From the IMG/VR virus record IMGVR_UViG_3300027836_000008: a stretch of 64,000 bases of DNA. One strand, given 5' to 3'. The first letter of the stretch is position 1; every line of letters begins with the position of its first letter. This document shows, piece by piece, positions 28,564 through 58,789 of the stretch. The notes under the pieces are model-generated. The model made no database searches, was not told the origin of the DNA, and worked only from the letters and a program-made list of their open reading frames with translations. The DNA comes from a virus. The translations under genes and the position numbers were made by a program.

Positions 28564-28630
28564 TAATCTATCTCCTGAGCATGAGTCTAAACTGCTCACA
28601 ACAAACCCACTAATAGAATTGGAAAACATA

Positions 28631-48202: not shown

Positions 48203-48469
48203 CTAGGATGTCAATCTTTTATGTGTTCTTATTCTATGGCAATTTGCACATACTACTTCACATTTGGCTATCTCTTTTTTGATCGCTGCCCACGAAAATC
48301 CATCATGAATCATCCTAGATATGTTATACTTTTTATCTCTTAAATGATCAAAGTCTAAAATTATATGATTACCTATTCCACAATCAACACAGCCAGAAGC
48401 CTCTTTGATCTCAGCAAGTTTTCTTTTATACTCTTGCTTGTTATAGTGTTCTAACTCTTTGTTAGTCAT
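48203..48469 (-). CDS. HNH endonuclease
   Basis: CVDCG...LDFDH...CEVVCANCH.IRT. Confidence 0.85.
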   Translation of the reverse strand: MTNKELEHYNKQEYKRKLAEIKEASGCVDCGIGNHIILDFDHLRDKKYNISRMIHDGFSWAAIKKEIAKCEVVCANCHRIRTHKRLTS

Positions 48470-48496
48470 TGATATTATTATACCGTAAAATATTAA

Positions 48497-48614
48497 GAGC
48501 CCCACGTAGGCGATTCAAGCACAATGGCCCAGGTCGTATAGAATAGGTAACTAATCCATCCCAAGGTCCTACGTGAGGCATACCAGGTATTTAACGTCGC
48601 TGTCTCCCCCGACA
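48497..48614 (-). ncRNA. Candidate structured ncRNA with its own extended -10 promoter
   Basis: TGGTATAAT at 48628-48620; 5' stem GUCG/CGAC; 12-bp stem GCCUCACGUAGG/CCUACGUGGGGC; no ATG after the predicted TSS. Confidence 0.6.
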
Positions 48615-48620
48615 TTTAAA

Positions 48621-49328
48621 TTATACCAGAAGTTGTTTAAAGAGCCAGTCACCATCTATAGGTGAAGGATTATAGGTTTGCATATCATACTCTGGGAATA
48701 TTTTTTCTACTTCAGAAGCAATCTCTTGTGACACTATGGTTTTCCACAAGTTTGGATCACCAAGGAAAACTATACCCTCATTATACTTTTTCTTGCTTTT
48801 TTCTATGTCTTTAAGGATTACCTTTGCACCTACGTAATCACTGAGTCTGTCAAGTTCTTCAATGTCCCCTGAAACTAATTTATCAAAACTAAAGCATTCC
48901 CCATGCTTAGACCAGTCTGATGTTATTTCTCTATAACTAGAAAACTGTCTGCTACCTATGTAAGAAAGGAACTGTTCAGAATTTGGCAACATCCCCTTGA
49001 ATAGGTCTGAGTTAAACATTTTATTATCAGGCCAGTCAGGGCTAAATCCTCTGTTGTGCATAAAAAGAATAGATAATGCCTGACCTATTGGATGTCTTTC
49101 TGTTGTTATGATCTTGTGTGTTTTTGCAAATTCTAAAAGTTGATGATCTTTTGTATCTGCGTGTATTCCAATAACTGGATTTGTTCTAGAAGATACCGTT
49201 GGATGTTTCCAAAACTCTTCATCATATTTTGTAAATCTCATACTATGAGACTTAGTGGCAAATGCAATAGAGTCAACAAGTAGGTGTGTTCCACAACGTG
49301 GTGGTGTCGATATAAAAAAACCAGGCAT
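48621..49328 (-). CDS. Sulfotransferase-like protein
   Basis: True start MPGFFISTPPRCGTHLL at 49328; TERHP.GQALS; FSFDKL. Confidence 0.65.
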   Translation of the reverse strand: MPGFFISTPPRCGTHLLVDSIAFATKSHSMRFTKYDEEFWKHPTVSSRTNPVIGIHADTKDHQLLEFAKTHKIITTERHPIGQALSILFMHNRGFSPDWPDNKMFNSDLFKGMLPNSEQFLSYIGSRQFSSYREITSDWSKHGECFSFDKLVSGDIEELDRLSDYVGAKVILKDIEKSKKKYNEGIVFLGDPNLWKTIVSQEIASEVEKIFPEYDMQTYNPSPIDGDWLFKQLLV

Positions 49329-49385
49329 ACAATAAGTATAGCAGAAAACACCTATGGTATAATTATTGAGAGCAAAGGATGTGTT

Positions 49386-50087
49386 ATGGATCAGCAAAGA
49401 CTTGACAACGCTAAAAGAGGCGTTACAGTTAATCAAGAAGGTAAAGAGTTTAGTTTTACATCTCCAATCCCTGGAGTGCATATTTATGATAATGTTTGGC
49501 CAGAGTCTGATGCATTTTTTGAAAAGTTGCTTACGCCAGAATTTTGGGAAACAAATACAGACATTCCTGGTGCTAGAAAATGGGTACGTGAAGACTTCTT
49601 TGATGATGTAGAGTATACAAAAGATAATGGCAAGAAGTCTGATACATGCTGGGTTTATTCTCACCCAGAAGCAAATGAAGCATTTAAGGATGTTGTTAAT
49701 TCATATACATTCCACTGGAATATTGATCCACGAAGCAGAGAGAGTTTAAGAATTTCTAGATTCTCAAACGGTGAATTCTTTGGGGCTCATGCAGATGATA
49801 CATATGCGACACCAAGAACTGTTTCCCTAGTCTATTATCCTAATGACGACTATGAAGGTGGAGAGTTAGAGTTTATTCACTTTGGTGTAACAATTAAGCC
49901 AAAGGCAAAGCAGTTGTTTATATTCCCTTCAGGCTATTCTTATGAGCATAGAATTACAGAAATTACTGCTGGTAATCCTAGATGGACTATCGTTTCATTC
50001 TTAGAGTTTGGTGATGATTTTGAAACAACAAAGAGAAGAAAAGATCTAGACTTTCCATACAAACCAATATTTAAAGAACTATTTTAA
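49386..50087 (+). CDS. 2OG-Fe(II) oxygenase
   Basis: AHAD...VSLVYYPNDDYEGGE...EH.I...RWTI. Confidence 0.88.
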   Translation: MDQQRLDNAKRGVTVNQEGKEFSFTSPIPGVHIYDNVWPESDAFFEKLLTPEFWETNTDIPGARKWVREDFFDDVEYTKDNGKKSDTCWVYSHPEANEAFKDVVNSYTFHWNIDPRSRESLRISRFSNGEFFGAHADDTYATPRTVSLVYYPNDDYEGGELEFIHFGVTIKPKAKQLFIFPSGYSYEHRITEITAGNPRWTIVSFLEFGDDFETTKRRKDLDFPYKPIFKELF

Positions 50088-52313: not shown

Positions 52314-52598
52314 TTAGTCTGACATAGTTAGACTGCTCCAAGTCTTCCACCAATCTTCCTTCTTCCTGTGGTTATTAAATTCCCTCGATATAGCGCCACC
52401 TTCAAGATAGACACCACCCCAAACGCCCCACTCTTTGCCAGTAATGCCAACAGCAAAACAGTTTTTGCTTATTGGACATGTAGAACAAAGTTTGTCAATT
52501 GCTGGTCTTAGAAGTTCATCTTCTTCATACTTATCAAAGAATAGATTAGTGTCGTAGTCCAAGCATAAGGCTTCGTCTTTCCACTCATGCTTTTTCAT
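52314..52598 (-). CDS. whiB: WhiB-family Fe-S transcription factor
   Basis: WKDEALC...LFF...CSTCPISKNC...GVWGG: four Cys plus G(V/I)WGG. Confidence 0.92.
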   Translation of the reverse strand: MKKHEWKDEALCLDYDTNLFFDKYEEDELLRPAIDKLCSTCPISKNCFAVGITGKEWGVWGGVYLEGGAISREFNNHRKKEDWWKTWSSLTMSD

Positions 52599-53915: not shown

Positions 53916-54135
53916 CGTTAATCCTCCATTGCATAATTTTTGGACCTGCATCAATCATTTGATACATGTTGTATTTAAAGGTTTGTTCAAGATCTTCGTA
54001 CATGTCTGGATAAACAGTCTTTAACTTATCTGTAATTGTGTACAGTGTTTCTCCAGAATCAACGTCAAATCCAGATACCTCCAGCGCCCCTTGAAGCACA
54101 AGATGCTCCATTAGGGCTTGATTCTTTATGCTCAT
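53908..54135 (-). CDS. Hypothetical protein
   Basis: LVLQGALEVSGFDVDSGETLYTITDKLK. Confidence 0.7.
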   Translation of the reverse strand: MSIKNQALMEHLVLQGALEVSGFDVDSGETLYTITDKLKTVYPDMYEDLEQTFKYNMYQMIDAGPKIMQWRINVE

Positions 54136-54386
54136 TATTCTCCAATAAAGTCTAAGAAGTCTTGTTTTGTTTTTGCACCATTCATTCGCTTAACTTCTAA
54201 ACCATCTTTAAGAAGAATGTATGTTGGAATAGTCTTAACACCAAAGTTTTGAACAAGTTCTGTTTCAGAATCTGCGTCTACAAAGACAAAATCGATGACT
54301 CCATCACGCTTTAGTTCTTCAGCAACTGGTCTTGTACGCTGACATGGGTTACACCATTCAGCAGTGAAGTAAAGTACATGACTCAC
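54135..54386 (-). CDS. Thioredoxin
   Basis: FTAEWCNPC; IPT. Confidence 0.92.
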   Translation of the reverse strand: MSHVLYFTAEWCNPCQRTRPVAEELKRDGVIDFVFVDADSETELVQNFGVKTIPTYILLKDGLEVKRMNGAKTKQDFLDFIGE

Positions 54387-54790
54387 TTGCCAGACTTCTT
54401 TCTAGCCTTTGCAAGGGCATCAAAGTCCTTAACCTTTGTATCTCCTAAGTATCCCCATGCATAACCATCATTGATCATCATGTCGTTAAGTGATACAGTG
54501 TTTCCATCTACATATACCCAGCCCAAAATGCGACCATACTTCTCAGATGAATCCATCTTTTCAGTCTTAATAACAACAGCCTTAGCATCCTTCAGAGCCT
54601 TCTTTAGGTACTCCTTGGCTTCTAGACCTAGTGCCTTCTCAGCAAGGTCTTTTGTGCGTGACTCAGGGGTATCAATACCAGCCAGTCTTACACGAGATGC
54701 AAACAGGATGTCAAACCCTAGATCAATAAGCACATCGATAGTATCTCCATCGACAACTGCTTCTACTTTTCTTACATAGTACTCATACAT
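54383..54790 (-). CDS. Thermonuclease (SNase-like)
   Basis: VVDGDTID; RVRLAGIDTPE; KYGRILG. Confidence 0.92.
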   Translation of the reverse strand: MYEYYVRKVEAVVDGDTIDVLIDLGFDILFASRVRLAGIDTPESRTKDLAEKALGLEAKEYLKKALKDAKAVVIKTEKMDSSEKYGRILGWVYVDGNTVSLNDMMINDGYAWGYLGDTKVKDFDALAKARKKSGK

Positions 54791-57956: not shown

Positions 57957-58748
57957 TTATGCCCCCAAAATTTTCTTATAAGTAATTGTATCAACGATAC
58001 CATTGATAGTCAACTTATTCTTCTTTTGAAAATCCTTAACAGCCTTATCTGTTCCTGGACCAAACTCTCCATCTGCAGTAAGTCCAAGGGCTTCCTGAAT
58101 CTTCTTAACAGAAGATCCTTTTGCCCCTACCTTGAATGGCTTAAACTCCTTCTTAGCAGCGGTTGTAGCAGGCTTTGAAGCCTTTACAGGTGCATCAGAG
58201 GATCCCACCTTTGAAAGTAGTGGAAGGTTTTCTTCACCAGCGTATACTGGACGACCCCAACCAACGATTGCATTCATCAACTTAGGCTTATTATTCTTTA
58301 CATATGCACGAGTCTTTTCTACACACATTCCGCCATTTCGTTGGTCTCCCTTTGCAGTTCCTGAAGTATTTCCTTCGATAACCTGAATTGTTCCATCTCC
58401 ATTGTTTTTAATGCAAAGACCGACATGTGAAATTCGATTTACGCCATCATCTGGGAAATCAAAATAGATCCAGTCTCCAGGAGTTGGGTCATCATTACGA
58501 GCATCTGCCCAGCGATCATTCTTCTTAAACCAATCAGATGCTGCAACCGTTGCTGCACTCTTTGGATACTTCTTTGGATCTAGTCCTGCAGTAAATGCAC
58601 ACCATGAAACAAATGACTGACACCATGGAAGGAAGTTTGCACCTGTCCACTTACCATACTTTGTTTCATTATCTTTTGGACCTTCGATAGTCCCAATTTC
58701 TTTCTTTGCAACCTCAATGATTGCTTCTAGTGAACCTTTTGTTGCCAT
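57957..58748 (-). CDS. Endolysin: CHAP amidase plus peptidoglycan-binding domain
   Basis: PWCQSFVSW; HVGL; IEGNTS; C-terminal LGLTADG.FGPGT..AVK.FQ...L..NGIVD. Confidence 0.92.
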   Translation of the reverse strand: MATKGSLEAIIEVAKKEIGTIEGPKDNETKYGKWTGANFLPWCQSFVSWCAFTAGLDPKKYPKSAATVAASDWFKKNDRWADARNDDPTPGDWIYFDFPDDGVNRISHVGLCIKNNGDGTIQVIEGNTSGTAKGDQRNGGMCVEKTRAYVKNNKPKLMNAIVGWGRPVYAGEENLPLLSKVGSSDAPVKASKPATTAAKKEFKPFKVGAKGSSVKKIQEALGLTADGEFGPGTDKAVKDFQKKNKLTINGIVDTITYKKILGA

Positions 58749-58789
58749 TTTATCCTCCTACGGATCTTATTGTATAATTATACCATTTG

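Follow-up and report, generated by a model that had tools for sequence, protein, structure and literature searches.

Lytic phages produce promoter-driven non-coding RNAs with a high degree of structure, among them species 1 and 2 RNAs of phage T4 (rnaC and rnaD) and the pRNA of phi29. The T4 RNAs sit in a tRNA cluster, beside tRNA genes, and we know of no function for them, while the pRNA folds into a three-way junction, its 5' and 3' ends being paired, and works via complementary, covarying loops. In type III toxin-antitoxin systems, the ToxI-like RNA lies ahead of the toxin gene and consists of a unit of 34-45 nt repeated in tandem. To our knowledge, actinophages of uncultured lake-type hosts are abundant and almost nothing is known about their regulatory RNAs. 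The pistol ribozymes, which occur in phages, possess a loop-junction pseudoknot, a two-base GU cleavage junction and ten highly conserved nucleotides (RF02679; Harris et al., 2015; PMC4604425).

The locus described here lies on the minus strand of a 64,000-nt stretch of viral DNA (IMG/VR record IMGVR_UViG_3300027836_000008), which is referred to in its full length as the window. An original prediction had proposed that a discrete, promoter-defined and structured non-coding RNA is encoded at this locus and that it is not simply the leader of the HNH endonuclease gene downstream. The -10 box at fixed spacing and the strand-specific model scores reported below argue for this proposal and, judged by sequence comparison, the window encodes a genuine folded RNA that is non-coding, conserved in evolution and equipped with a promoter of its own, and that matched no described RNA family. 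The sequence features on which the proposal was built, namely the overlap of the -10 box with a stop codon, the GUCG/CGAC hairpin and the 12-bp stem with the 57 nt that it encloses, are all present where they had been placed. The locus is laid out as follows, listed in the direction of transcription:

48620-48628, minus strand: extended -10 box TGGTATAAT, identified by reading the sequence
48595-48614, minus strand: Z module, a 5-bp hairpin (U48614.G48595 plus GUCG/CGAC) with the 10-nt loop GGGGAGACAG
48580-48594, minus strand: A-rich linker UUAAAUACCUGGUAU, part of the Z module
48499-48579, minus strand: T module, a three-way junction, from covariance model R1 and covariation
48568-48579 with 48499-48510, minus strand: stem P1 of the T module, 12 bp, enclosing 57 nt
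48562-48567, minus strand: junction strand J1/2 of the T module
48556-48561 with 48541-48546, minus strand: stem P2 of the T module
48547-48555, minus strand: P2 loop
48511-48540, minus strand: variable J2/3 and P3 region of the T module (30 nt)
48487-48498, minus strand: U-rich tail UCUUAAUAUUUU after the GC-rich P1, a probable 3' end or weak terminator
48203-48482, minus strand: small HNH endonuclease gene (88 aa) with its own -10 box, assigned by PHROGs

The open reading frame upstream of the element (48621-49664) ends with a TAA stop codon (48623-48621) inside the -10 box TGGTATAAT. It had been named a sulfotransferase, an identity that stays unconfirmed, since Pfam and PHROGs returned no match for this frame at the thresholds used. 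GUCG (48613-48610) begins 6 nt past the hexamer and is followed by the loop GGGGAGACAG, CGAC (48599-48596) and GUUAAAUACCUGGUAU. The same arrangement recurs in relatives: a TAYAAT hexamer stands 6 nt ahead of the Z module in 26 of 27 promoter-adjacent copies, and where the T module occurs on its own a -10 box lies 3-10 nt (mostly 6 or 8) ahead of P1 in 87 of 89 copies, whichever gene is found upstream. The sequence that precedes the -10 box can be hsp20, a sulfotransferase-like ORF, a tRNA or a pseudoknot. The window RNA would start at the Z hairpin or one base before it, and its 3' end would fall in the U-rich tract after the closing stem. As had been predicted, the HNH gene possesses a promoter of its own, with a -10 box at 48482-48477, 7 nt before its ATG at 48469. 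Across 108 contexts the 12 nt after P1 contain on average 6 U, and the next promoter comes after this tract. A scan of the region for terminators found no canonical one; an intrinsic terminator is a compact GC-rich hairpin with a loop of 3-8 nt and a U run directly after it, and in the window RNA a U-rich stretch does come after the GC-rich P1, but this stem encloses 57 nt. Read-through from the RNA locus into the HNH gene is possible because a canonical terminator is lacking.

The hairpin of the Z module is found as an exact motif in at least 120 IMG/VR contigs and is present once in the window. Its G-rich loop of 10 nt is invariant, and the pair flanking GUCG/CGAC is formed in 71 of 82 distinct copies and covaries, with UA in 36, AU in 23, UG in 5, GC in 4 and CG in 3 of them. 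A double change within the stem, to GUUG/CAAC, was seen in a single copy (L401), which was retrieved with a loose Z-variant pattern whose other matches were nearly all due to chance. When 91 distinct copies are followed downstream, 18 lead into a T domain of the type present in the window and 69 into a short H-type pseudoknot, the other four being chance matches in GC-rich coding DNA. In both kinds of RNA, Z is followed by NNUAAAUA(A/C)CUG. Pairing of the CUG in this linker with the CAG in the Z loop could give a small H-type pseudoknot; both trinucleotides are invariant, so that the CAG:CUG pairing offers no covariation to be read. The H-type pseudoknot that usually follows Z in other phages also has a copy that stands by itself (CCUGAGCAUG...AAACUGCUC), which is present at 28574-28597 on the plus strand of the window, right after a stop codon.

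Some of the Z-pseudoknot loci are more elaborate. At L046:3795-3850 (plus strand) and at many others, two further conserved hairpin modules can precede Z, one consisting of UCUGCACCCC..GGGGAGUCGCAGA and the other of GGGCAUCGCUGCCC plus AGGAUA. These hairpins share the promoter after hsp20 and, together with Z and the pseudoknot, make up composite RNAs of up to ~150 nt, for which Rfam gave no match. In two loci (L045 and L076) another promoter-driven RNA lies just downstream of the Z-pseudoknot RNA; its 3' part resembles the T-arm and acceptor end of a tRNA (..GAAGUCGAAUCUUCGUGACCA) and its 5' part fails to complete a cloverleaf.

The comparison of homologues speaks strongly for a conserved fold of the T module. 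Its covariance model R1 assigns 84 bits to the window copy and 49-101 bits to the T copies on the sense strand, versus at most 24 bits on the antisense strand. Conserved pairing in homologues, the check that had been named for the proposed RNA, was found: across 49 distinct T sequences 98.7% of cells are paired, a value that falls to 31-53% when the partners are shifted by one to three columns, and the covariation score of the same 49 sequences was reached by none of 500 shuffles. In P1, changes on both sides occur in 10 of 11 pairs of this set. P2 comprises six pairs and a loop of 9 nt; its outer pair appears in five pair types, and an exchange of G-C for G-U is also observed. Positions 3-9 of the P2 loop (UAGUUAC) are invariant in 122 contigs that were retrieved by a pattern in which the loop was left free, and positions 1-2 vary. 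The 5' junction strand has either CUUAG or CUUGG as its conserved core. The third arm (P3) is variable in sequence and in length among homologues, and a consensus helix sought for it across the T classes was not obtained: some classes form a helix of 6-7 bp (ACC..UGC with GCA..GGU) with a bulged G, and the commonest class has only GGC/GCC and a possible 3-bp outer helix. The folding energy of the window RNA (-39.6 kcal/mol, z = -1.5) is unremarkable.

A pseudoknot between GGGG and CCUC, which had been suggested as well, did not gain from the comparison, since the two can pair in 95% of cells but do no better than shuffled columns and show zero compensatory changes. Readings of the junction as a K-turn (box C/D-like), a hammerhead core, a loop E or a T-loop were considered by eye and rejected, since GAUGG contributes its GA to P2, a stem with a covarying outer pair, and since the bases that would have to make up such a core vary.

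The exact 12-bp stem pair of P1 recurs in nine IMG/VR contigs. The locus was also recovered via the upstream ORF, at 70-88% protein identity, and conservation in those relatives is much higher for the RNA than for its flanks. Altogether the number of viral contigs with the element lies well above one hundred, the two modules being present in hundreds of uncultured actinobacterial phages, and a search by the apical hairpin also found T alone, as an RNA of ~85 nt directly behind a -10 box. Five large T-bearing contigs contain exactly one T each, two of them being 100% complete genomes of 100 and 116 kb, and Z is present in two of the five. A whole-contig search of five Z-pseudoknot contigs, three of which are at least 90% complete, found T in none. 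Since T occurs without Z and Z without T, the comparisons identify the window RNA as a fusion of two independent modules. The RNA of ~115 nt that had been predicted is thus upheld as a structured RNA but not as a single unit. T is a single-copy gene in phage genomes of 100-116 kb and is under selection for structure.

WhiB proteins are typical of Actinobacteria and their phages. A WhiB-family protein of 94 aa is encoded in the window (52314-52598, minus strand; 42 bits against a Pfam cut-off of 23.6), and in all five T-bearing genomes searched a WhiB protein scores above the Pfam cut-off at a distance of 3-5 kb from the T RNA; the T-bearing phages are therefore actinophages. A pattern scan of one genome each of ~185,000 prokaryote species did not find T, the single match lying inside protein-coding sequence. 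With blastn against cultured phages only the HNH part of the locus matches, T being absent at the sensitivity of blastn. The RNA represents a widespread family that is specific to uncultured actinophages and matches no Rfam family.

In most relatives the gene upstream of the RNA is hsp20, for which IMG/VR contains 553 relatives and whose identity to the hsp20 of any cultured phage does not exceed 43%. The 88-aa HNH protein matches PHROGs HNH families (E = 9e-22), and the same small HNH gene directly follows T in ~85 of 108 distinct contexts. Behind divergent T copies, the place directly after T is taken not by HNH but by another gene, for example a Dps-like gene or the gene of an MPYHVG... protein. 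In one relative (L083) a gene of 254 aa is inserted between T and the HNH gene, which is found ~0.8 kb further downstream. The two arrangements, L083:7070-9760 (plus strand) versus 48209-48626 of the window, constitute a gene-order polymorphism in which the inserted gene looks thiol-peroxidase-like by eye; the L083 DNA after the insert matches 58092-58759 of the window, so that the region has been rearranged among close relatives. Elsewhere in the window, a thioredoxin gene (54135-54386) and a staphylococcal-nuclease-like gene (54383-54790) lie next to each other on the minus strand (54135-54790). The latter comes after a Z-pseudoknot RNA in many other phages, and the window copy is preceded by neither Z nor pseudoknot.

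At the gathering score, Rfam 15 returned only tRNAs for the window, where ARAGORN places 11 tRNAs outside the element. With permissive filters, cmscan of an 800-nt region against Rfam 15 gave nothing relevant at E<=10, and 13 related loci searched at E<=1 had no match on the element. The families that had been named for checking, namely pistol, SRP RNA with its Alu domain, 6S/Ms1 and HEARO, did not match at E<=10, and no covariance-model match to the element was obtained for any other Rfam 15 family either. ARAGORN finds no tRNA or tmRNA at 48487-48614. The repeat array of a ToxI-like type III toxin-antitoxin RNA is absent, Z occurring once in the window and T once per genome.

The explanation that accounts best for these observations, to which a probability of roughly 0.55 is given, is that the window encodes an independently transcribed actinophage non-coding RNA of ~125 nt that is stable, acts in trans and shows an invariant loop to one partner. 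Transcription would run from the Z hairpin to the U-rich tract, and both ends of the RNA would be locked in helices, which would render it stable. The rigid junction would then present the invariant loop and the junction strand to a single partner, which might be a protein or an RNA and might belong to the host or to the phage. The Z module may act as an accessory, cap-like element at the 5' end that stabilises the RNA or protects this end, or may recruit a factor. It must be considered, however, that the near-identity of T among otherwise diverged phages may not be due to purifying selection alone but partly to joint spread with the HNH gene next to it. When the window and the 2 kb around each of 108 loci were searched for sequences to which the two invariant loops could bind as antisense, matches occurred at chance level only.

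Several features of the locus would also suit an element that acts in cis, be it a structured 3' end or terminator by which the message upstream, in most relatives that of hsp20, is stabilised, or a processed 5' leader that controls the HNH gene by read-through from the promoter upstream. The RNA comes directly after a gene end, its -10 box overlapping the stop codon, a U-rich tract stands behind the GC-rich closing stem, no strong terminator precedes the HNH gene, and the same phage carries a small pseudoknot at the end of another gene. What makes a role in cis doubtful is that the RNA has its own promoter, conserved at fixed spacing, and that the HNH gene has a separate one together with a leaderless start. 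Moreover, the upstream gene differs by context, the downstream gene is not always HNH, and neither a terminator nor a stabiliser needs an invariant loop of 7 nt. The frequent neighbourhood of T and the HNH gene, in ~85 of 108 contexts and still nearby in L083 despite the insertion, raises another option, in which T would be the conserved target beside which a free-standing homing endonuclease gene was inserted or an RNA that binds or restrains the nuclease. Far better conservation of T compared with flanking proteins that are 70-88% identical would be expected near a homing site. Yet divergent T copies exist without an HNH gene directly after them, the compensatory changes reveal selection on the RNA structure and not only on the DNA sequence, and the 88-aa HNH protein has no known RNA-binding domain, all of which renders a tie to the endonuclease unlikely.

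The invariant P2 loop allows for a further proposal, according to which the RNA would be directed at the ribosome: P2 would copy the 790 loop of 16S rRNA and complement the loop of 23S helix 69, and the RNA would bind at the interface of the subunits or sequester a factor of that site, e.g. IF3. If this were true, initiation could shift toward the leaderless messages of the phage. Taking the E. coli rRNA as reference, UAGUUAC complements 23S 1910-1916 (the helix 69 loop) perfectly, the complementary stretch leaves out the variable loop positions 1-2, and P2 equals the 790-loop hairpin save for one loop base and a swapped pair. In addition, J1/2 of the main class (ACCUUAG) complements 23S 1925-1931 with an equal spacing of 8 nt, and nine bases of the Z hairpin, eight of the loop and the first of the stem, complement 23S 1989-1997. 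However, the ACCUUGG of the window itself, with G48560, could pair with 23S 1924-1931 only through a G-U wobble, and J1/2 is matched over a longer stretch, a 9-mer, at another site (23S 998). Matches of this kind are also common, as ~35% of the 7-mers of these RNAs are complemented somewhere in rRNA, three 9-mer matches were observed versus about two expected, and the local alignment with 16S scores 21 versus 19.9 +/- 2.2 for shuffles. Only the clustering of the three matches is unusual, at ~1e-3 by a post hoc estimate, and the matches are spread over Z and T, which are independent modules; a ribosomal role is accordingly considered quite improbable and is kept as a lead, not as a finding. Self-cleavage was likewise weighed, but a ribozyme, whether of a new class or derived from pistol by insertion of an arm, appears very improbable. 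The P1 hairpin of pistol followed by UUAAAUA is mirrored in the window RNA, as is the order of hairpin, linker, long stem, junction and hairpin (PMC4604425), but no Rfam ribozyme model matched at E<=10, no hairpin loop-junction pseudoknot covaries, ~30 nt take the place of the two-base cleavage junction of pistol, and Z and T are each found alone elsewhere, which a single catalytic fold would not allow. Finally, the statement that no ATG follows the transcription start proved inaccurate, as an ATG (48615-48613) overlaps the start and opens a frame of 40 codons (48493-48615) from which a peptide of 40 residues could be translated. Its ATG is present in the window only and is replaced by GTG, TTG, AAG or CTG in relatives, indels of 1 and 2 nt shift the frame, and the substitutions in the stems are compensatory. 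Start-codon loss and indels refute the coding reading of this frame, and the peptide is left with next to no chance.

Taken together, a widespread, strongly constrained, single-copy RNA gene with a clean promoter and two exchangeable modules points to a phage function that is not based on protein. At ~85-125 nt and with one invariant loop, the RNA provides a defined and inexpensive experimental handle. Should the proposed trans-acting RNA turn out to engage machinery of the host, for example an RNase, a defence protein or the ribosome, it would reveal a new way in which phages take over the cell. Even if the RNA turned out to be a mere stability element, the shuffling of Z, T and the pseudoknot would show phages building small RNAs from parts.

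Pistol shares an outline with the window RNA, as in both a short 5' hairpin is followed by a UUAAAUA linker, then by a longer helix and, beyond a junction strand, by another hairpin, and both occur in phages. On inspection, the resemblance suggested in the original prediction shrinks to the P1 hairpin and the UUAAAUA linker. The Z hairpin (5 bp with a covarying outer pair) corresponds to the short 5' P1 hairpin of pistol. A loop-junction pseudoknot is not apparent, the Z loop being invariant and the GGGG:CCUC pairing without double changes, the two-base junction is replaced by the 30 nt of 48511-48540 with a further helix, and the conserved core found no model match (cmscan, Rfam 15, E<=10). 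In contrast to pistol, the two halves of the window RNA occur independently, and the shared UUAAAUA probably reflects an A-rich strand running along a short helix rather than common descent. The T4 RNAs and the phi29 pRNA are comparable to the window RNA as structured non-coding phage RNAs driven by promoters, the pRNA also in its three-way junction and the T4 RNAs in their place beside tRNA genes, but have no known similarity to it in sequence or by model, and the window RNA differs from the pRNA in that one of its loops is invariant and the other variable. P2 resembles the 790-loop hairpin of 16S helix 24 (as described in PMC4613259) in its 9-nt loop and two G-C closing pairs, 12 of 13 core bases being identical; the loops are distinguished by a single base (A792 to U), and the pair just outside the core is exchanged in P2 in a compensatory way. 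Compared with the H-type pseudoknots at gene ends, the window RNA has the 81-nt T junction in place of the pseudoknot, with no sequence shared between the two, and both are alike in their short stems and A-rich crossing strand.
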